IMG/VR virus record: IMGVR_UViG_2563366895_000001
Location: 1-64,000 of that record
Source of the DNA: a virus
Taxonomy: Duplodnaviria > Heunggongvirae > Uroviricota > Caudoviricetes
Length of the DNA: 64,000 bases
Strand: one strand, 5' to 3'
Below the pieces are notes generated by a model that saw only the letters and a list, made by a program, of their open reading frames with translations, searched no databases and was not told where the DNA came from. The position numbers and the translations under genes are program-made. This document shows, in pieces, positions 2,558-62,324 of the stretch; within the stretch, counting starts at the first letter, position 1, and every line of letters begins with the position of its first letter.

Positions 2558-3118
2558 TTAGTGCATGATATTTGCCATCTCATAGGCGTCAGCCAGCAAC
2601 TCCATCTCTGACTTGTTCAGCAGGGTGAATTCTTTCTTGCCTCCAACCACACCATCGGCATGAACAGGGACCAGCCAGGGGTATTTTTCTCTTACTTCAG
2701 CCGGTGCTGCATGCTGGTGGTGCCATCTACAAAGGGGCAATTGCTTTTTGTGACAACCCGGCGCGGTACGACCGGAGATATGGTGCAGAGACACCTCTTC
2801 AGATATTACTCCATGCATGTAGCAGGCAATGCAGGGGAGAGTGCCAAGAGCATTGGCGATGGTCCGTTCCTCCGCCGTCGGTGTTCGCCCCTTCAAGCCA
2901 CGAGATTTTATTTTTACCGCACTTTTCCGCGTTTTGCTGGCTGGTGGGCGCTCTTTCTGTTTAGCGATACGGCGGTCGATAGAATCCCGCATTTTCTGAT
3001 ATTGCGATTCTCGCCAGGCGGGGTCAGCCAACTTTTCCCGTTGCCGAGCGATCGCTCGTTCTCTGGCTGCCTTCTGCCACTCGCGGCGCTGTTCAAGTTT
3101 TTGTTCGATTGTTTTCAT
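2558..3118 (-). CDS. ref: Ref recombination-enhancement function, HNH-family endonuclease
   Basis: Begins MKTIEQKLEQRREW at the internal ATG (3118) of the 221-aa track ORF, giving 186 aa; cysteine/histidine-rich C-terminus (CIACYMHG...HHISGR...CRWHH); position downstream of cre as in P1; the upstream ATG at 3223 lies upstream of the promoter/operator. Confidence 0.8.
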   Translation of the reverse strand: MKTIEQKLEQRREWQKAARERAIARQREKLADPAWRESQYQKMRDSIDRRIAKQKERPPASKTRKSAVKIKSRGLKGRTPTAEERTIANALGTLPCIACYMHGVISEEVSLHHISGRTAPGCHKKQLPLCRWHHQHAAPAEVREKYPWLVPVHADGVVGGKKEFTLLNKSEMELLADAYEMANIMH

Positions 3119-3123
3119 ATGGC

Positions 3124-3149
3124 AAAAAAAAGGCGGCCTAATGGCCGCC
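3124..3149 (-). terminator. Intrinsic terminator-like hairpin plus T8 run in the ref leader
   Basis: Minus strand reads GGCGGCCATTAGGCCGCC followed by TTTTTTTT, ending 5 nt before the ref ATG; lies between the putative ref promoter/operator and the start codon. Confidence 0.4.
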
Positions 3150-3216
3150 AATGATGTCAAGGAGTGAAGTAATGGCAACGTCTTCGTAGTTGACAAAAAC
3201 TGCGACTCAATTATAG

Positions 3217-3233
3217 CAACCAATTAGAGCAAT
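3217..3233 (-). promoter_or_regulatory. C1 operator-like site overlapping putative ref promoter
   Basis: Plus strand caaccAATTAGAGCAAT (11 of 17 consensus positions); minus strand has gctataat -10 immediately downstream. Confidence 0.45.
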
Positions 3234-3364
3234 TAAAGTTGTTTATTTATCGCGAATCACATTTTTTCACTTCAGTACCTGTGTGCTATACTCCTTCTTG
3301 ATTGATTGGATGCGGAATACAAACCCGCTCTTTTGTGCAGCCTGGCTCCTTGCCAGGCTTTTTT

Positions 3365-3676
3365 TTATTTCATCATGGAAGCTGTTAACGCTTTGGACCT
3401 TGCTGAACTGATTGAGAGGGCTTTGTCAACGTGCCCCAAAAATTCGCCAAACTCAGACATCACTTTAGCAAAACCGCGCCGTGCTTCTTCCTCGGTGGCA
3501 TTCATCACGAAATGTTCAGCACCACGCATACTTTTGACAGGGAACGCAACGGATATTGAATCAATATCAGGCATTCTATCGCTCAGCTTTACAGTGACAA
3601 TGACGGCTGGCGACTGAATATTAGTGCTTACAGACAGCACTACATATTTTCCGTCGATTTTGAAATCCTTTCTCAT
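3365..3676 (-). CDS. Hypothetical protein downstream of cre (c8-like position)
   Basis: 103-aa ORF; operator-like site at 3693-3709 just upstream. Confidence 0.45.
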   Translation of the reverse strand: MRKDFKIDGKYVVLSVSTNIQSPAVIVTVKLSDRMPDIDSISVAFPVKSMRGAEHFVMNATEEEARRGFAKVMSEFGEFLGHVDKALSISSARSKALTASMMK

Positions 3677-3692
3677 ATGTCACCATAAATAT

Positions 3693-3709
3693 CAAAGAAT
3701 TAGAGCAAT
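3693..3709 (-). promoter_or_regulatory. C1 operator-like site (partial match)
   Basis: caaagaATTAGAGCAAT between the cre stop and the 103-aa ORF. Confidence 0.35.
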
Positions 3710-3726
3710 CATTTACGCGTTAATGG

Positions 3727-4758
3727 CTAATCGCCATCTTCCAGCAGGCGCACCATTGCCCCCGTTTCACTATCCAGGTTACGAATGTAGTTCATGACAA
3801 TATTTACGTTGGTCCAGCCGCCAGCTTGCATGATCTCCGGTATAGAAACTCCGGCGCGGGCCATATCTCGCGCGGCACCGACACGGGCACTATGTCCAGA
3901 CCAGGCCAGGTATCGCTGACCAGAGTCATCTTTTGCCCCGTAAATCAATCGGTGAGTTGCTTCAAAAATCCCTTCCAGGGCGCGAGTTGATAGCTGGCTG
4001 GTGGATGATGGCGCGGCAACACCATTTTTTCTGACGCGGCAAAACAGGTAGTTATTCGGATCATCAGCTACACCAGAGACAGAAATCCATCGCTCAACCA
4101 GTTTAGTTACCCCCAGGCTAAGTGCCTTCTCTACACCAGCGGTGCTAACCAGCGTTTTCGTTCTGCCAATATGGATTAACATTCTCCCACCGTCAGTACG
4201 TGAGATATCTTTAACCCTGATCCTGGAAATTTCGGCTATACGTAACAGGGTGTTATAAGCAATCCCCAGAAATGCCAGATTACGTATATCCTGGCAGCGA
4301 TCGCTATTTTCCATGAGTGAACGAACCTGGTCGAAATCAGTGCGTTCGAACGCCAGTGCCTGTTTTGCACGTTCACCGGCATCAACGTTTTCTTTTCGGA
4401 TCCGTCGCATGACCAGTGAAACAGCATTGCTGTCACTTGGTCGTGGCAGACCGGACCGACGATGAAGCATATTTAGCTGGCCCAAATGTTGCTGGATAGT
4501 TTTCACTGCCAGACCGCGCGCCTGAAGATATAGAAGATAATCGCGAACATCTTCAGGTTCTGCGGGAAACCACTTCCGGTTATTCAACTTGCACCATGCC
4601 GCCCACGACCGGCAAACGGACAGAAGCATTTTCCAGGTATGCTCAGAAAACGCCTGGCGATCCCTGAACATGTCCATCAGGTTCTTGCGAACCTCATCAC
4701 TCGTTGCATCGACCGGTAATGCAGGCAAATTTTGGTGTACGGTCAGTAAATTGGACAT
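3727..4758 (-). CDS. cre: Cre site-specific tyrosine recombinase
   Basis: 343-aa translation recognised as P1 Cre (MSNLLTVHQNLPALPVDATSDEVRKNLMDMF...; catalytic region ...HSARVGAARDMARAGVSIPEIMQAGGWTNVNIVMNYIRNLD); loxP lies 420 bp upstream. Confidence 0.97.
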   Translation of the reverse strand: MSNLLTVHQNLPALPVDATSDEVRKNLMDMFRDRQAFSEHTWKMLLSVCRSWAAWCKLNNRKWFPAEPEDVRDYLLYLQARGLAVKTIQQHLGQLNMLHRRSGLPRPSDSNAVSLVMRRIRKENVDAGERAKQALAFERTDFDQVRSLMENSDRCQDIRNLAFLGIAYNTLLRIAEISRIRVKDISRTDGGRMLIHIGRTKTLVSTAGVEKALSLGVTKLVERWISVSGVADDPNNYLFCRVRKNGVAAPSSTSQLSTRALEGIFEATHRLIYGAKDDSGQRYLAWSGHSARVGAARDMARAGVSIPEIMQAGGWTNVNIVMNYIRNLDSETGAMVRLLEDGD

Positions 4759-4765
4759 TTAACAC

Positions 4766-4987
4766 TCAGATGATGGTTTTAAGTAAAGTGTACAGGATCG
4801 GCTCTGCCTTTACCTGTTTATGGTTCTCGTCATAGAAACGCCAGCGACCGCGCGTGCGTTCTATTTTCTCTTCACCGCGCGATAATGACAGTTGGCAACT
4901 ATCACGATCAAACCCTTTTGCCCGCCAGTAACCACGGTTTTTCTCAAGCTCAAGATGAGTGGACACTTTAGCAGTTGAATATCCCAT
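4766..4987 (-). CDS. cra: Small ORF between loxP and cre (cra-like, cre-associated)
   Basis: 73-aa ORF ending 8 bp before the cre start, same strand; name assigned from position only. Confidence 0.45.
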   Translation of the reverse strand: MGYSTAKVSTHLELEKNRGYWRAKGFDRDSCQLSLSRGEEKIERTRGRWRFYDENHKQVKAEPILYTLLKTII

Positions 4988-5082
4988 TTTTCACCTCTGA
5001 TTGATTGGTGGTGCTAAGTGCGCTACGCGAAATCTGTAGGACTAACACCGCCAACTTTGCACAGATTTTACGTAGCGCAACC

Positions 5083-5106
5083 TTGATCAAATGATCAAGT
5101 GATCAC
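5083..5106. promoter_or_regulatory. Cluster of three Dam (GATC) sites in the cre upstream region
   Basis: ttGATCaaatGATCaagtGATCac; consistent with the methylation-sensitive cre promoter known for P1. Confidence 0.4.
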
Positions 5107-5176
5107 TATTTGACCTGCTAAGGTATTGAACTGTATGGATTTACAGGTAAATTGATCATATTCAATAACCCTTATT

Positions 5177-5210
5177 ATAACTTCGTATAATGTATGCTAT
5201 ACGAAGTTAT
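5177..5210. other. loxP: loxP recombination site
   Basis: Exact 34-bp ATAACTTCGTATA-ATGTATGC-TATACGAAGTTAT: 13-bp inverted repeats flanking the 8-bp asymmetric spacer. Confidence 0.97.
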
Positions 5211-5253
5211 CAGGTCCGAAGAGGAGTTTACGTCCAGCTGTGCACAAAAATCA

Positions 5254-5270
5254 ATAATTATTAGAGCAAT
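5254..5270 (-). promoter_or_regulatory. C1 operator (Op99-type, c1/coi control region)
   Basis: ataATTATTAGAGCAAT matches the reverse-complement consensus AAATTTATTAGAGCAAT. Confidence 0.6.
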
Positions 5271-5336
5271 AAATTTAGAGAGAAAAATCCCACTCCACCA
5301 GCTAAAAACTGGATTGTTTTTCATAGTTGTTTGACA

Positions 5337-5353
5337 ATTGCTCTAATAAATTA
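5337..5353 (+). promoter_or_regulatory. C1 operator overlapping a TTGACA -35 box
   Basis: TTGACA followed by ATTGCTCTAATAAATTA, 16 of 17 consensus positions. Confidence 0.65.
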
Positions 5354-5591
5354 TAGTTTTGCCGACGTTACGTAATACGACTTTGGATTCACTATTTAAT
5401 GTGTCTTCAGCGTTGTAGAGCGGCTCAGAAGGAAATGAGCAAACAGGGAAACCTTATACAACGGCATTACAGCTATGCATTGCTCATCTTACACACAGCG
5501 CAATGTTGTTAGATTACCCCAGCATGGATCATGGGTGAAACAGTAGGTCAGAGCTTCAGGCTCTGTGTTGTCAATACAGTGAGGCATAATT

Positions 5592-5801
5592 ATGGCTTTC
5601 ATTCAACCAACCATCGACGACGTTAGACATTGCTCTAACGCTTTATCTGTAGACCCTGCCGAAACCGACGCTGCCCGCGCCATTGCTGAACACTACTCAA
5701 AGATATCCAATCAGGAGTACCGCATCACCCAAGACGACCTGGATGACCTCACTGACACAATCGAATATCTCATGGCAACTAACCAGTTGGACTCACAATA
5801 A
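5592..5801 (+). CDS. coi: Coi, C1 inactivator
   Basis: 69-aa ORF directly upstream of c1 on the same strand, downstream of C1 operators. Confidence 0.8.
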   Translation: MAFIQPTIDDVRHCSNALSVDPAETDAARAIAEHYSKISNQEYRITQDDLDDLTDTIEYLMATNQLDSQ

Positions 5802-5911
5802 ATGCACTAATAAATCTATTATTTTTGTTTGATCCCTCTATAATATAGGTCAGTAATGACCGGTTTTCTCAGCCGGGCGTTATTGACCATGTCAATTCTG
5901 GAGGAGGATCA

Positions 5912-6763
5912 ATGATAAATTATGTCTACGGCGAACAACTGTACCAGGAGTTCGTCAGCTTCAGGGATCTCTTTCTAAAAAAAGCTGTTGCACGCGCCCA
6001 ACACGTTGATACAGCCAGCGACGGTCGTCCTGTACGCCCGGTTGTCGTTCTACCGTTCAAAGAAACTGACAGCATTCAGGCTGAAATTGATAAATGGACT
6101 TTAATGGCGCGGGAACTGGAACAGTACCCAGACCTCAATATCCCAAAGACTATTTTATATCCAGTGCCTAACATCCTTCGCGGTGTGCGTAAGGTTACAA
6201 CTTATCAGACAGAGGCTGTGAACAGCGTCAACATGACCGCTGGCCGCATTATTCATCTGATTGATAAGGACATTCGCATCCAAAAAAGCGCGGGGATCAA
6301 TGAGCACAGTGCGAAATACATAGAGAACCTGGAAGCAACAAAAGAGCTAATGAAGCAGTACCCGGAGGATGAAAAATTCCGTATGCGCGTACACGGCTTT
6401 AGCGAAACAATGCTGCGCGTCCACTACATTTCCAGTAGCCCTAACTACAATGATGGTAAATCAGTTAGTTACCATGTGCCACTGTGTGGCGTGTTTATCT
6501 GCGATGAAACTCTCCGTGATGGAATTATCATCAACGGTGAATTCGAAAAAGCAAAATTTAGCCTTTATGACTCCATAGAACCGATCATCTGCGACCGCTG
6601 GCCGCAAGCAAAAATATATCGCCTGGCAGATATTGAAAATGTAAAAAAACAAATTGCCATCACTCGCGAAGAGAAAAAGGTTAAGTCAGCCGCATCAGTT
6701 ACGCGCAGCCGTAAAACCAAGAAGGGGCAGCCAGTAAACGACAACCCCGAAAGCGCGCAATAA
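5912..6763 (+). CDS. c1: C1 repressor of lysis
   Basis: 283-aa ORF (MINYVYGEQLYQEFVSFRDLFLKKAVARAQHVD...), length and context as P1 C1; its operator is scattered across the window. Confidence 0.9.
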   Translation: MINYVYGEQLYQEFVSFRDLFLKKAVARAQHVDTASDGRPVRPVVVLPFKETDSIQAEIDKWTLMARELEQYPDLNIPKTILYPVPNILRGVRKVTTYQTEAVNSVNMTAGRIIHLIDKDIRIQKSAGINEHSAKYIENLEATKELMKQYPEDEKFRMRVHGFSETMLRVHYISSSPNYNDGKSVSYHVPLCGVFICDETLRDGIIINGEFEKAKFSLYDSIEPIICDRWPQAKIYRLADIENVKKQIAITREEKKVKSAASVTRSRKTKKGQPVNDNPESAQ

Positions 6764-54699: not shown

Positions 54700-54960
54700 A
54701 GGTTTAACAACCTGCTACCCGCTGCTAAACAGGTGGCAGGACGTGACGGGGTTAGCAGACTGGCGATTGTGAAACCAGCAGGCCGAAGCCTCCCCATCCC
54801 GCCCCACCATAATTTGGGCGTAACGCGGTTTTACGGACACAAAAATACCGCAATATCGGATATCTGCGGCTGTCCGCACAATCATTCAGGCTGCTAAACC
54901 CGGTCGCAGAATTTGCTACGACGGCGAAACTATAAGCCTGAACGATTAAAAGGTCAATAT
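54700..54960 (-). ncRNA. c4: c4-type antisense RNA and its target sites in the immI leader (approximate)
   Basis: Between the Op51-type operator and icd; minus strand has GGGTTTAGCAGCC, then complementary GTCTGCTAAC, then a second TTTAGCAG next to the icd RBS. Confidence 0.4.
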
Positions 54961-54994
54961 GATGCGAAAAGATAGCATTCGCGACTTAAAAATA

Positions 54995-55011
54995 CAAATT
55001 TATTAGAGCAG
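54995..55011 (-). promoter_or_regulatory. C1 operator upstream of immI (Op51-type)
   Basis: AAATTTATTAGAGCAga, 15 of 17. Confidence 0.6.
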
Positions 55012-55293
55012 ATTAGTGTCGTGCAATAGATATATTATTTGTGATGAAAAATAATGCAGAGGGATATTGTAACTTTAAGATGGATATCAATAGTCGATAC
55101 ATAAATTAAGTTAGCAATAAACTATTAACTTAAGAAATAATGCAGATGGTGAACTTGTCTCTGACTTTTCAGCTATACACAATAAGTTAGGGATAGCTTA
55201 TAAAAAGTTGATTAATTGATATAAGTCAATGGGAGTATTCTTGTTTACTTTCCGTTCTCGTGGTAACTTCTCGCCGGTTTTTGTTTTTCTGGG

Positions 55294-55815
55294 ATGATTC
55301 TTATGTCTAAAAAGTATACTTTATGCGCTCTTGTTGTATCTGCAATTCTTCTTTCTGGGTGTCAATCTAGCGGTGCTGATTATGCTGCCGATGTTTATGA
55401 TACCGCTCAATTGAATTCGAAGCAGGAAACAAAGACAGTCAATATTATCTCTGTGCTTCCAGCTAAAGTGAAAGTTGATAATAAAGCTAATAAAGAAGCG
55501 GCACAGACATTTGGTGCGGTACTGGGAGCTGTTGCTGGGGGCGTTGCCGGTTATAATGTTAAAGGCACATCGACACTGGGTGCTGTAGCTGGCGGTACTG
55601 GTGGTGCGGCTCTTGGTGCAGCGGCTGGTTCTTTGGTTAGTGATAAAACAATTGTTGAAGGTGTTTCACTGACTTATAAAGAAGGAACTAAGGTGTTCAC
55701 TTCAACTCAAGTTGGTAAAGCATGCCAGTTTACAACGGGGCTTGCTGTGCTTATTTCAACTAAAGATAATGAAACTCGAATTCAGCCAAATGCTACTTGT
55801 CCAGAAAAGAAATAA
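55294..55815 (+). CDS. Lipoprotein with glycine-zipper segment
   Basis: MSKKYTLCALVVSAILLSGC signal/lipobox; GAVLGAVAGGVAGY...GAVAGGTGGAALGAAAGS. Confidence 0.6.
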   Translation: MILMSKKYTLCALVVSAILLSGCQSSGADYAADVYDTAQLNSKQETKTVNIISVLPAKVKVDNKANKEAAQTFGAVLGAVAGGVAGYNVKGTSTLGAVAGGTGGAALGAAAGSLVSDKTIVEGVSLTYKEGTKVFTSTQVGKACQFTTGLAVLISTKDNETRIQPNATCPEKK

Positions 55816-55818
55816 TTT

Positions 55819-56358
55819 ATGAATAAAATTATTTTATTTCTAATCTTTTCTACGTTTAGTGTAGGCACTGCCTTGGCTAACTCGTTGCAAAGTCAAATTG
55901 CTGCTATTGCTCAAGCGGAAAATGAAGGGCGAGCTAAAGAGCAGCAAGCTGAGGATGCCAGAAAAGAACTTATTCGCCAACAAGCACAAGCTGAACGTAT
56001 TAGAAGAGAAAAAGCAGCATCTGCCGCTGCTGCACGCGAAAAACAGCGTGTTGCTGCAGAAAATGAACGTAGAGCGAAACGAGAAGCCGAGCTAGCAAAT
56101 GACAAGAAGCGAGATCAAGCTTATGAGGATGAGCTTCGCAAGCTGCAACTCGAAAGCATGAAACTCGAACTGCAAGCAAAAGCGGCTCGTGTCCAGCGAG
56201 AAAACGATTTTATAGAGCAGGAGTTGAAGGAGAGAGCAGCTAAGACAGATGTAATTCAGTCTGAGGCTGATGCAAATAGAAATATTTCTACAGGAAGTAA
56301 AGATTTACTGCAAAGCGAAGGAAAAGCTAGAGAGAAGAAAGCTAGCAGTTGGTGGTAG
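55819..56358 (+). CDS. Secreted coiled-coil protein with TolA-like Ala/Glu/Lys/Arg-rich repeat
   Basis: Signal peptide MNKIILFLIFSTFSVGTALA; body EQQAEDARKELIRQQAQAERIRREKAASAAAAREKQRVAAENERRAKREAELA. Confidence 0.55.
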   Translation: MNKIILFLIFSTFSVGTALANSLQSQIAAIAQAENEGRAKEQQAEDARKELIRQQAQAERIRREKAASAAAAREKQRVAAENERRAKREAELANDKKRDQAYEDELRKLQLESMKLELQAKAARVQRENDFIEQELKERAAKTDVIQSEADANRNISTGSKDLLQSEGKAREKKASSWW

Positions 56359-56384
56359 TAATCGCTACGATTGCGAGCATACTG

Positions 56385-57005
<621 letters not shown>

Positions 57006-58604: not shown

Positions 58605-61600
58605 ATGGAAAGAAAAAACGCCAACATTGACGATGTTATAAGGACAGTTGAAACCGCCAGCGCAAAAGAGCTGGAAGAGCTTGCAGGTATCCGGGAAGCT
58701 GTTGAAGATTTGAAAGGGGGACGCGTTGCAACTGTTGATCCTGTCTCTCGCAGTGTGTCGGCATTAAATCGCACAATCGAAAATTCCCGGCCAGACTTTG
58801 TGGCCAATGCGCCATCAGTGGACCCTATTGTTGACGCAATGAAACGGCTTAATTTAGGGGACGTTTCTCGTATACGGGAGGACAAAGTCACTAACCGTGA
58901 ACAGCAGGCTGCACCAACAGCGCACAATCCCCCAAATAGACGAAGAGAGGCAATAACAGAGGATGTTAAAGCACAGCGGTTAGAAACGGTCAAACTCGCT
59001 CGTGATTTGAAAGGGGAACGCGTTGCAACGGTTGACCCAGTATCTCGCAGTGTGTCGGCATTAAATCGAACAATCGAAAATTCCCGGCCAGACTTTGTGG
59101 CCAATGCGCCATCAGTAGCCCCTATTGTTGACGCAATGAAACGGCTTAATTTAGGGGACGTTTCTCGTGTAGTTCAGGAGGGCATTGCTCAACAGGAACA
59201 GCAGGCCAAATCAACTACACCAAAGGGTAAAAAACGACGCAGGAAGGCTATACCAGAGGATATAAAGGCACAACGGACCGAAGCAGCCGAACACGCTCGC
59301 GAAATGCTCGATCAAAAAGGCGGTGCGCAAAAAAGCCAAAACCAACGCGATGCGCGTGGTCGTTTTATTGGAAAGTCAGGGAGTAAGGCCGCAGCGGAAG
59401 ATGCCCGTGCTGAACGTGCTGAAAAGGCCAGGCGCAAAGAGGATGATGAGCGTCTAAATGCTGAATCAGGTTTATTAAAAAAACTGTCAAAAGTAGCTGA
59501 AGGCATAGGTAACCCTTCAGAGACTCGTGCCGTCGATGCGTTAGGTTATGCCGTTGCTGGTCCATTGTGGGCAGCAGGGAAGGAGCTTGGCGGGATATCA
59601 AAAGAAGTTGGTGGATCGCTTAATGGTGCCAGAAAGTCTATTGCCGATGTGATTCGTGGCAATGACGATAACAGCCGTAGAAAAGGTTTTTTTAGGCGTA
59701 AATCGCAAAATAGTGCCGATGTCGTTCAGGTTAACACCCAAAAACGGACGGTTCAGGAACTTCAGGAGCAGACCAGCGAAATTAAAGAGGGCAATGACAA
59801 GATTCTCAGCGCCCTTGATCAGATAGCCAAAAACACCGGGAAAAAGAAGGGCGGCTTGCTGTCCAAACTATTTAGCCTGTTAGGGAAGGGGGCCGGTGGC
59901 GTCGCGTCGTTGTTAATGGGGCGTGGCATGCTGAAAAAAGCTGGAGCACTCGCTTTTGGCGCTCTGGGGGCAAAGAAACTTGTAGGAATGCTACGCGGTG
60001 GTGGCAAGAAGACTCTCGCCCATGAAGGCGGAGATTTGGCTGCCCGGGCAGCAGGTAAACTTGGATTAAAGGCAGTTGGTAAAGGGGCGTTACGCGCAAT
60101 TCCCCTGGTCGGCACAGTGGCTGGAGGTATTTATGATGCGGTAACCGGTTGGAATGATACAGAAGCGCAACGTCGAGCGTTTGGGCTTAAATCAGGACAA
60201 GATCCATCATTCCAGCAAAAAGCCGCTTATACGTTAGCTAATGTTCTTGATATGGGGGGACTGGTATCTGGTATTAACAGCGCCATTGGTGAGGTTCTCA
60301 AATCACTTGGATTTGAGGATATCGGCAATATGTTGCAATCATTTTCGACGGAAAGTATTGCCCAGGCCATTGATAGTGGGATTACCAACTTAGAAACATA
60401 TATTTCTAACCTTGGCGACACGATTTCTACCAAGTTCGATGATTACACAGCAAAGATTGGTGATGCTGTTTCAGCATGGTTTAGCGATACATCTAATAAG
60501 CTGCTTGAAAAGCTGGATGCCATCAAAGACTTCTTTACTGTCGATAACCTGAAACAGGTTTTCAGTGATGCAATTGATAGTGCAATTGATTTCATTAAGA
60601 ACCCAGGGAAACACATTAAAGAGGCGGCTGGTAATATTTGGGATGGGGTTAAAAATTTACCCGGTAAAGCATTAGATGCAGCGGTTGATGCCGTTAAAAA
60701 TACCCCTGCGGCAATGATTGTATCAAAAATACCCAATCCGATCGGCGAGGCTAATGCGAAAGAAATCACTCCAGAGTTAAAAGCTCCGGTTAATAGCCAC
60801 CAGGAGACGTCTAATTCTAAAACTGAATCCGATGCCAAACAGAGTAATATTGCTACCCGCGTGATAAATGCGGCACTGGACACAGCGAAAGATAGCAATA
60901 AAACAGTTAAACAAACTGCCAATCAGATTATCAATGCAAATGCCGTAGAAACGGGCAATAGCGCGTTGCAGAAAATTGATAAAGCTATTGGTCAAAATAG
61001 CTCGTCATCATCCTCGCTTAATACCACTGGCACCAGGAATGACATTCAGAAAGCTGCGGATACCTACAATAATGGCAACTTGGATGTAAAAGTCGGAAGT
61101 CTTGGCGCTGAAGGTAAGGCAAATCTCGATAAGTTGGCTCCGTATTTTGCTGAACTAGAGAATAAATATGGCCTTCCTGAAGGTACTCTTTACGCGATCG
61201 CTGCAACTGAATCTGGTGGTGATCCTAACGCAAAATCTACGCTTACAAGATCACCAAATAGAAAGCTAAGTGGTGGCGCTCTCGGAATGTTCCAGTTTAC
61301 GAGCGTTGCTCGTGAGGAAACTGGATTATCCCGGGAAGATTCTTTTAATCCGGAAAAATCGGCAGAAGCTGCGGCTCTTCTCATGAGCAAGTATCTGAAG
61401 CAAGCCAATGGAGACTTAAACGAGGCCATCACTGCATATAACGCTGGGTTTGGCACTATCAATAAGTGGAAAAAAGGCACAGGTGACTTATCGAAAGAAA
61501 ACCGTGAGTACGCGATCAAGGTCAATACTCATCGTGCTCGCTATTTAGGTGGTGAAATCTATACACCTGGAGCAGGAGCACAGGGTGGGGCGCAATATGG

Positions 61601-62324
61601 AGTGAGGGGACCACTGCCTGATAACGCTGTTATCGATCAGTCTACTGGCCTGGCGTTTACCCCTGGTGATAGCCCGTTTGAGAAAGGCGGTCTGGTAGAC
61701 AAAATCGGCAATGCTGTTGGCGTTAACGATCTGGTCAACAAATTCATGAATGGCCGGGGTATGCGTCGGGAAGTCGTTCAGGGAACGCTCGAAGAACGTG
61801 CACGAGGGAAGGGGACCGCAACAGCAGCTGGCAATGTGTATGTTGATACTCCGATGCCAGTTGAAGAGGCGCGTCCGGTGGCCAGCAACTCAAGTTACTT
61901 TGACCAACTCGGCGCACAAATGGGGATTGATGGACTATTCGATAAACTCCGCAACTCGCCGGGGATGCGGAAAAATAATGCGCCTGAACCAGCCTCCACG
62001 TCCCAGGTGACGACTGCCGCCAACGATTTGCAGCAACCAACCGGTCGTATGCAGATAGACGGGCAGGTTATTAGTGACCTTGGCGGTTCCGGTGCCAAGC
62101 CGACAATGCAGTTGGCTGATAATACCGTTTCACTTGATGGTGAAACGAAGCGGCTGTTTGCGCAGATGACCTCATTGCTTGCCAGGATTGAAGAGCACAC
62201 CAAAGACTCGGCGAAAGGCCAGGGAACTGTCGTAAAGGTCAGCACGCCTCAGCCGGGCGTTATGCGCACGGTACCACTGTCAATTGATGATCCGTTGATG
62301 AATGACTACGCGAGAGTTGATTGA
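58605..62324 (+). CDS. sit: Sit-like tape-measure/injection protein with lytic transglycosylase domain
   Basis: 1239 aa; Gly-rich central segment; SLT signatures ...IAATESGGDPNAKS...GALGMFQF...AYNAGFG; internal duplicated N-terminal segments. Confidence 0.8.
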   Translation: MERKNANIDDVIRTVETASAKELEELAGIREAVEDLKGGRVATVDPVSRSVSALNRTIENSRPDFVANAPSVDPIVDAMKRLNLGDVSRIREDKVTNREQQAAPTAHNPPNRRREAITEDVKAQRLETVKLARDLKGERVATVDPVSRSVSALNRTIENSRPDFVANAPSVAPIVDAMKRLNLGDVSRVVQEGIAQQEQQAKSTTPKGKKRRRKAIPEDIKAQRTEAAEHAREMLDQKGGAQKSQNQRDARGRFIGKSGSKAAAEDARAERAEKARRKEDDERLNAESGLLKKLSKVAEGIGNPSETRAVDALGYAVAGPLWAAGKELGGISKEVGGSLNGARKSIADVIRGNDDNSRRKGFFRRKSQNSADVVQVNTQKRTVQELQEQTSEIKEGNDKILSALDQIAKNTGKKKGGLLSKLFSLLGKGAGGVASLLMGRGMLKKAGALAFGALGAKKLVGMLRGGGKKTLAHEGGDLAARAAGKLGLKAVGKGALRAIPLVGTVAGGIYDAVTGWNDTEAQRRAFGLKSGQDPSFQQKAAYTLANVLDMGGLVSGINSAIGEVLKSLGFEDIGNMLQSFSTESIAQAIDSGITNLETYISNLGDTISTKFDDYTAKIGDAVSAWFSDTSNKLLEKLDAIKDFFTVDNLKQVFSDAIDSAIDFIKNPGKHIKEAAGNIWDGVKNLPGKALDAAVDAVKNTPAAMIVSKIPNPIGEANAKEITPELKAPVNSHQETSNSKTESDAKQSNIATRVINAALDTAKDSNKTVKQTANQIINANAVETGNSALQKIDKAIGQNSSSSSSLNTTGTRNDIQKAADTYNNGNLDVKVGSLGAEGKANLDKLAPYFAELENKYGLPEGTLYAIAATESGGDPNAKSTLTRSPNRKLSGGALGMFQFTSVAREETGLSREDSFNPEKSAEAAALLMSKYLKQANGDLNEAITAYNAGFGTINKWKKGTGDLSKENREYAIKVNTHRARYLGGEIYTPGAGAQGGAQYGVRGPLPDNAVIDQSTGLAFTPGDSPFEKGGLVDKIGNAVGVNDLVNKFMNGRGMRREVVQGTLEERARGKGTATAAGNVYVDTPMPVEEARPVASNSSYFDQLGAQMGIDGLFDKLRNSPGMRKNNAPEPASTSQVTTAANDLQQPTGRMQIDGQVISDLGGSGAKPTMQLADNTVSLDGETKRLFAQMTSLLARIEEHTKDSAKGQGTVVKVSTPQPGVMRTVPLSIDDPLMNDYARVD
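58712..59300 (+). repeat. Two diverged tandem copies (about 295 bp each) inside sit
   Basis: Protein segment RVATVDPVSRSVSALNRTIENSRPDFVANAPSV(D/A)PIVDAMKRLNLGDVSR occurs twice; DNA copies begin near 58712 and 59007. Confidence 0.7.

Follow-up and report, generated by a model that had tools for sequence, protein, structure and literature searches.

A phage-borne yfgH–yfgI family cassette in the sim slot of a P7-type punavirus

Escherichia coli K-12 carries yfgH and yfgI as an adjacent pair between yfgG and guaA, and a chromosomal match to the phage-borne pair described here, at 60 to 80% nucleotide identity, is found in 5420 of 5426 complete E. coli genomes. A 2025 preprint reports that YfgH localizes to the outer membrane, rises on depletion of LpxC, LptD, or BamA, and stabilizes the outer membrane under stress: yfgH deletion brings SDS + EDTA sensitivity and a more permeable outer membrane, YfgH overexpression rescues outer-membrane biogenesis knock-downs, and YfgH pull-downs recover BamA, LptD, OmpF/C/A, and LamB (bioRxiv 10.64898/2025.12.22.696046). 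The same study presents SlyB-like rings of YfgH as AF3 models, finds different genetic suppressors for yfgH (clsA) and slyB (the Mla pathway), and contains 0 occurrences of "yfgI" (bioRxiv 10.64898/2025.12.22.696046). Earlier genetics tied yfgH to lptD and outer-membrane integrity (PMC3219608). The sole experimental data, which concern the host orthologue YfgH, point to outer-membrane stabilization (bioRxiv 10.64898/2025.12.22.696046; PMC3219608). For yfgI, the single phenotype on record is nalidixic acid sensitivity upon deletion (PMC3536626), and the Salmonella Typhi orthologues srgIL are SdiA-regulated (PMC11619404).

E. coli and Salmonella commonly carry P1-like phage-plasmids, which spread resistance genes. 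The sim genes of P1 adjoin immI according to the P1 annotation, as the first-pass annotation of the present DNA had correctly stated, and the sim region, itself of low GC, belongs to a set of eight that vary among P1-like phage-plasmids (PMC9603915). For phage P7, the 2003 GenBank record already noted homology to E. coli proteins. A literature search for DUF5384, upf50.x, and SlyB with exclusion found no study on the phage copies.

The DNA analyzed here (the window, 64,000 nucleotides in all) belongs to a P7-type punavirus, a P1-like phage-plasmid; positions 54900–56440 are 99.4 to 99.8% identical to phages P7, RCS47, SJ46, phi456, and JL22. Two ORFs were confirmed at 55294–55815 and 55819–56358, separated by a gap of 3 nt and lying on the plus strand, opposite to c4-icd-ant. 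Their products match upf50.5 (ORF1) and upf50.0 (ORF2) of phage P7 at 100% protein identity and at 99.4 to 100% overall. The opposite, minus strand carries ant1, icd, the C4 antisense RNA (54729–54814; Rfam RF01695 match), and the a1b1 targets of C4 RNA (54883–54935). The C1 operator Op(c4)/Op51 (54996–55012, minus strand; P7 annotation and an operator consensus scan, 2 mismatches) sits at the divergence point between the ORF pair and c4-icd-ant. It forms the left edge of a discrete cassette whose right edge, outside the cassette itself, is the late promoter LPsit (56388–56407, plus strand; P7 and P1 annotations), which drives pmgC/tubA-tub-pmgB-sit.

Blastn breakpoints against P1 delimit this P7-type cassette at 55011–56386 on the plus strand (1376 bp): P1 homology breaks off at 55010 and restarts at 56387, the −22 box of LPsit. 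The cassette stands in for the 1513-bp P1 segment PsimA-simA-simB-simC, and the swap is exact from Op51 to LPsit. It has the Sim-type location, between Op51/immI and LPsit with transcription directed away from c4, and a GC content of 40.4% compared with 47.1% for the whole window. A tblastn comparison across 58 IMG/VR P1-like loci found no SimA, SimB, or SimC homology in P7-type slots, and no Rfam match lies inside the cassette.

The first gene (55294–55815, plus strand) is predicted to encode a SlyB-family glycine-zipper outer-membrane lipoprotein. A Shine-Dalgarno-like GGGA at 55291–55294, together with the annotated start in pLR-25_1, makes the ATG at 55303 (170 aa) the likelier start. The glycine-zipper lipoprotein proposed at first pass is evident as an LSGC lipobox with Cys23 and a Gly/Ala zipper of G/AxxxG/A runs at residues 70–112. 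The +2 residue is Gln, a non-Asp residue compatible with outer-membrane sorting, and both the lipobox Cys and the C-terminal pair Cys144/Cys169 are invariant across 33 homologues. E. coli K-12 YfgH is 67% identical over 171 aa (E 4e-73). A single-sequence PDB search with the lipoprotein missed SlyB; the family profile recovered it (7ojf_A, E 1.7e-9) over nearly the full length. SlyB was also the top Foldseek match (E 6.6e-7, probability 1.00, 25% identity), from a low-confidence monomer model (pLDDT 58). Pfam glycine-zipper matches fall under their cut-offs, as does TraT (PF05818: E 7.2e-5, 23.1 bits, cut-off 31), and Foldseek comparison of the pLDDT 58 model with decameric TraT (9e2v/9fsm) gave E 0.09–0.2 and TM 0.25. 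Homology to YfgH and SlyB is shown by these comparisons, and the sorting signals mark the product as a predicted Lol-sorted outer-membrane lipoprotein.

The second gene (55819–56358, plus strand) encodes a predicted Sec-exported member of DUF5384 (Pfam PF17358: E 3e-43, 147.8 bits against a gathering cut-off of 25), with 47% amino acid identity to E. coli K-12 YfgI (E 9e-46). Its signal peptide, also proposed at first pass, is cleavable and ends ALA|NS; with the lipobox of the first protein, it upholds the view that both products are envelope-targeted. The mature part comprises 158 aa, 65% of them A/E/K/R/Q, with weak heptad periodicity, and alignment places the conserved part of DUF5384 in the C-terminal 85 aa. 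An AF2 model shows one continuous helix from residue 3 to 178 (mean pLDDT 87.5), and at 1.5 Å per residue the 158 aa give a predicted length of ~23.7 nm; a modeled rod of ~24 nm would be roughly the width of the periplasm. The first-pass description of this body as a repeat resembling TolA domain II stands in part: the composition and long-helix shape agree, but Tandem Repeats Finder gives only a 15-bp, 2.4-copy trace, and the protein belongs to DUF5384 rather than being a TolA homologue. No TolA family was matched in Pfam or NCBIfam scans, the protein had no PDB match at E ≤ 1, and the sole match of the DUF5384 family profile against the PDB at that threshold was a capsid protein (E 0.45), not TolA.

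The first-pass annotation had left both genes unassigned; that reading is overturned by their clear homology to host yfgH–yfgI. It had also named homology to structural virion proteins as evidence that would tell against an envelope or exclusion module; neither PHROGs nor a comparison with Sit revealed any such homology, and the Sit similarity of both proteins was discarded as low complexity only. PHROGs matches are to phrog_1277 and phrog_1094, and the "DNA methyltransferase" label carried by phrog_1277 and by RefSeq upf50.5 records is an annotation error. An NCBIfam scan of both proteins returned noise only, and PADLOC found no defense-system match for either. Identification of the segment, by sequence homology, as a phage-borne yfgH–yfgI family member in the sim slot is firmly supported.

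The genes are preceded by a cassette-specific, AT-rich leader (55013–55293, plus strand; 31% GC). Alignment shows that a 34-nt block at 55213–55246, with the palindrome TTGATATAAGTCAA at 55216–55229, is kept in pLR-25_1, an example of a variant with 84% identity. The 10-nt segment TTTACTTTCC at 55244–55253 agrees at every position with the −35 part of a conserved promoter-like element of chromosomal yfgH; in a motif survey, perfect matches of the TTTACTTTCC type occurred in 0 of 1620 shuffles. That element, TTTACT-N17-TTAAAT, is kept upstream of chromosomal yfgH in Escherichia, and close variants of its TTTACT and TTAAAT parts occur in Citrobacter, Kluyvera, and relatives. The chromosomal −10 (TTAAAT) is absent from the phage leader and no convincing −10 was found there, so regulation probably differs from that of chromosomal yfgH. 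We considered a sigma-E-type promoter in the leader but rejected it for want of an acceptable −10. Sigma-70 promoter and terminator scans of the cassette were not above shuffled expectation, a consensus scan found no C1 operator inside it, and a box scan found no LPsit-like late-promoter box. With its own leader and neither an internal C1 operator nor a late-promoter box, the cassette would probably be active in the lysogen without relying on the control of host yfgHI.

The slot itself is polymorphic. Among ~506 PLSDB plasmids with a P1-type PmgC (identity at least 95%), SimC is present in ~140, the P7-type lipoprotein in ~168, where it is nearly clonal (99 to 100% identity), and the 84% identity variant in 20. 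A second sample, 58 IMG/VR P1-like loci with both slot anchors, shows an identical 1376-bp P7 fill in 17, simABC in ~12, a cassette of 224-aa and 158-aa secreted proteins in ~19, and the 84% variant with a DUF559 restriction-endonuclease-like gene in 1. The ~9 loci with larger sets add a TM/SH3 protein, a DUF4760 protein, or an IS element. SimC and YfgH were together in one slot in none of the 58 loci, and nearly all other slot cassettes in this sample encode signal-peptide (exported) proteins. One of these cassettes contains a 47-aa stretch 49% identical to Sit residues 1036–1078, a sequence similarity that suggests a decoy able to block injection. In these samples the sim slot looks like a polymorphic hotspot for exported proteins directed at cell entry.

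A DUF5384 profile scan using one genome per species returned 78 loci, spanning Enterobacterales, Vibrionales, Pasteurellales, Aeromonadales, Pseudomonas, Cellvibrio, Nitrosomonas, and Acetobacteraceae, and 75 were long enough to judge. A YfgH-profile ORF lay directly upstream of DUF5384 on the same strand at every one of these (75/75 species loci), showing from gene neighborhoods that yfgH–DUF5384 is an obligate pair throughout Proteobacteria.

Between the P7-type cassette and its 84% variant, the lipoprotein gene has a dN/dS of 0.06 and the DUF5384 gene one of 0.04, with dS saturated (1.5–3.2); the backbones carrying them are about 97% identical. Saturated dS and low dN/dS on such similar backbones imply that two anciently diverged alleles entered one slot and that both were kept functional. 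The substitution pattern thus shows phage copies that are intact and, as estimated from sequence, under strong purifying selection. A P7-type copy (at least 99% identity) is present in 182 of the 5426 complete E. coli genomes, about 3%; given the host yfgHI, a lysogen would hold two non-identical copies of the pair.

Capture extends beyond punaviruses; in all, three temperate-phage backgrounds and several plasmids carry such a pair. Diverged pairs lie at the ends of integrated myovirus prophages of E. coli and Salmonella, adjoining tail-fiber and tail-fiber-assembly genes (loci L090, L092–L094, and L097), and one protein of such a myovirus-prophage pair appears in 245 blocks of the indexed collection. 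A 102-kb Salmonella contig (L088) carries the pair with Rep3, a tail fiber, exonuclease VIII, and an endolysin-like gene. Neither L088 nor another pair carrier, L089, had a megablast match to GenBank phages; PHROGs identified phage genes in L088 and only weak signals in L089. Two plasmid carriers are a conjugative Vibrio plasmid and a 7.5-kb ColRNAI plasmid; on the ColRNAI plasmid the pair lies beside a truncated phosphoethanolamine transferase. A yfgHI match in phage TL-2011b, near the record end and at chromosomal-level identity, was taken as probable flanking host DNA and set aside. That phages capture the pair whole is an argument for the two proteins working as a single functional unit.

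On the best reading, the cassette is a horizontally acquired, complete yfgH–yfgI unit carried as accessory cargo in a variable slot of a P7-type punavirus. By analogy with the host proteins, we favor, with some reserve, a lysogenic-conversion role in which the cargo remodels or stabilizes the outer membrane through SlyB-like rings and a periplasmic rod. The cassette would be expressed in the lysogen from its own leader, apart from the stress-induced yfgHI of the host. Outer-membrane proteins and lipid would be enclosed by SlyB-like oligomeric rings of the lipoprotein, with the DUF5384 rod working alongside these rings on the periplasmic face. Overall, this would yield an outer membrane hardened or remodeled in advance, from which the lysogen may gain survival under detergent, bile, chelator, or antimicrobial stress. 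As a side effect, receptors would probably also be shielded from other phages or from colicins, and the cassette would act as a moron function in Sim's niche by another mechanism. This envelope-cargo reading is weakened by the near-universal presence of yfgHI in the host species, by the lack of a convincing sigma-70 promoter, by the pLDDT of 58 for the YfgH-like model, and by the fact that host YfgH rings are themselves only modeled.

The position in the sim slot speaks for exclusion no less than for a general fitness role, and a dedicated superinfection-exclusion system, functionally analogous to Sim, is the alternative that we take most seriously while judging it improbable. Ring and rod would then specifically keep incoming P1/P7-like or other phages from adsorbing, from tail-tube/Sit penetration, or from passing their DNA into the cell, either by caging receptors, in the way that TraT cages OmpA, or by obstructing the periplasm; hardening would be incidental. 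The exact replacement of simABC, the failure of SimC and YfgH to co-occur, and the exported products of nearly all other slot cassettes, one with its Sit-like stretch, all agree with such a role. So do the prophage pairs that adjoin tail-fiber genes, a neighborhood that is the classical place of receptor-masking lipoproteins such as Cor and Llp, and the binding of host YfgH to the phage-receptor porins OmpF, OmpC, OmpA, and LamB. The SlyB/TraT-like fold and weak TraT signal in Pfam and Foldseek point the same way, but that signal lies under the Pfam cut-off and the fold match is poor; the proteins moreover have neither Sim homology nor a PADLOC match, and the orthologues on the chromosome belong to the core housekeeping or stress genes rather than to defense. 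P1 and P7 use the LPS core as their receptor instead of a protein, so caging of outer-membrane proteins would not obviously exclude P1-like phages. Extending the exclusion idea across all carriers, we raise only tentatively, from analogy, the possibility that at least three temperate-phage lineages repeatedly domesticated yfgH–DUF5384 as a new class of outer-membrane exclusion or shielding device, in which rod-braced rings cage receptors and local LPS. If so, incoming phages, and perhaps colicins or complement, would be kept from adsorbing or penetrating; the pair would correspond, on the phage side, to plasmid TraT and could take the place of Sim interchangeably.

Two further explanations fit the data less well. 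The pair might be a neutral or near-neutral passenger, brought into a recombination-prone, low-GC variable region by illegitimate recombination and hitch-hiking on the successful P7-type backbone; the listing of the sim region among the eight known variable regions, its low GC (PMC9603915), and the near-clonality of the P7-type cassette over ~168 plasmids are compatible with this. We regard it as very unlikely: both ORFs are intact wherever seen, the dN/dS values against an anciently diverged variant imply independent acquisition and functional constraint, and other phage families and plasmids captured the pair independently. A lytic-cycle envelope function—spanin-like, controlling lysis timing, or protecting released virions—draws on a superficial Rz/Rz1 likeness (an outer-membrane lipoprotein with a ~24 nm periplasmic helical protein) and on the location of the cassette directly upstream of the late tail operon in the same orientation. 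It seems extremely unlikely, given that the canonical AXA site makes the DUF5384 protein predicted soluble, not inner-membrane-anchored, that LPsit lies downstream of the cassette with no second Lpa-type box upstream, that the orthologues belong to the chromosomal core and lie outside phage contexts, and that P1, which is without the cassette, is fully lysis-competent.

Relative to the earlier P7 record, what is new is the YfgH/SlyB family assignment, the obligate DUF5384 partner, the exact cassette boundaries, and the repeated capture of the pair by several temperate-phage lineages under purifying selection. Should the cassette harden the outer membrane or shield receptors, it would be a lysogenic-conversion trait affecting survival in bile, detergent, or antimicrobials as well as the outcome of phage therapy. 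The strict yfgH–DUF5384 pairing also offers a handle on YfgI.

Among described systems, E. coli yfgH–yfgI (S. Typhi srgI–srgL) resembles the cassette in gene order and in its tight gene junction. Lengths agree closely (lipoprotein 170–173 aa in phage and 172 aa for YfgH; YfgI proteins 179 aa in both), and the lipobox, glycine zipper, C-terminal Cys pair, DUF5384 C-terminal motif, and 10-nt −35 piece are shared. The two versions nonetheless differ at the sequence level (67% and 47% amino acid identity; GC 42–44% in phage versus 47–49% in the host), and the phage pair, unlike its chromosomal counterpart, is carried by a phage-plasmid, where immI and the late tail operon flank it. SlyB, a PhoPQ-regulated outer-membrane lipoprotein with cryo-EM structures (7OJF, 7OJG), is homologous over nearly the full length and shares the lipidated N-terminus, beta-domain, and glycine-zipper helical hairpin. 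The YfgH type is nevertheless a paralogous family apart from SlyB, and its genes always come with a DUF5384 partner.

TolA domain II is a long Ala/Glu/Lys-rich periplasmic helix, as is predicted for the DUF5384 protein, with no detectable homology between them; the DUF5384 protein has a cleavable signal peptide where TolA has a TolQR-coupled membrane anchor, and it does not include the TolA C-terminal domain. Two-component spanins (Rz/Rz1) use an inner-membrane-anchored coiled-coil subunit, whereas the AXA site of the DUF5384 protein predicts cleavage. TraT, the surface-exclusion and serum-resistance protein of F-like plasmids, is also a mobile-element lipoprotein with a glycine-rich membrane segment and forms outer-membrane rings; its likeness to the phage lipoprotein is weak in sequence and fold, and TraT is ~225–245 aa long and has no DUF5384 partner. 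P1 Sim, a superimmunity or superinfection-exclusion system, has slot and orientation in common with the cassette, and both specify Sec-exported products with dispensable accessory functions, without sequence similarity between their proteins. SimC is a single periplasmic protein, whereas the cassette supplies an outer-membrane lipoprotein and a predicted helical rod, both drawn from a host operon.

Upstream of the chromosomal yfgH gene, a promoter-like element is kept across the Enterobacteriaceae (positions 4857–4885 of the chromosomal locus L003; orthologous positions in loci L106, L110, L111, L114, and L116–L124). Its Escherichia form is TTTACT-N17-TTAAAT, and other genera have closely similar versions. 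The element lies about 125 nt upstream of the lipobox Cys codon. The phage yfgH-like copy retains only the −35 part of this element. The phage lipoprotein gene (window 55294–55815) is wrongly annotated in databases: PHROGs (phrog_1277) and several phage records in RefSeq call it a "DNA methyltransferase," and in phi456 it is named "minor tail protein" or "tail tip protein." The RefSeq records concerned in this mislabeling are NC_050152, NC_031129, and NC_042128.

Related genes are carried by other mobile elements. On pYLMB10c, a small mobilizable ColRNAI plasmid of 7.5 kb, a phosphoethanolamine-transferase gene and an IS1 are closely followed by a yfgH-like gene with 75% identity and by a DUF5384 gene that is truncated (region 3118–6063). 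In pLR-25_1, a yfgHI variant with 84% identity occupies the P1 sim slot, the variable segment between Op51 and LPsit, and is followed by a gene for a 419-aa protein (4889–6148). This protein has a DUF559/MTES_1575 restriction-endonuclease-like domain and, in PADLOC, weakly matches the PDC-S37 and Hhe nuclease domains.

At the late promoter LPsit, a perfect 13-bp inverted repeat (CTCGTAGAATCTA / TAGATTCTACGAG; window 56402–56436) falls within P1-homologous DNA, between the −10 element, which it overlaps, and the pmgC start. The sit gene (window 58605–62324) encodes a protein of 1239 aa, longer than the Sit of P7 (1130 aa) or of P1 (1140 aa). The extra length is due to a diverged direct duplication in the 5′ part of the gene (58707–59215), whose two 212-nt copies share 87% identity at a spacing of 297 nt. 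The P1 allele is matched more closely by the first copy and the P7 allele by the second, a sequence pattern that suggests unequal recombination within this putative tail ruler or injection transglycosylase gene.

The sim slot of many P1-like elements encodes a 224-aa secreted protein (IMG/VR loci L030 and L052). A 47-aa stretch of this protein, containing the motif GMRxxxVQGTLEERARGxG, is 49% identical to residues 1036–1078 of the window Sit (pairwise E = 7.6e-9), and a less strong match covers Sit residues 1092–1125. The secreted protein may act in the periplasm as a decoy of Sit, itself an injected protein. The 52-aa "SimA" of P1 is no more than its N-terminal fragment.
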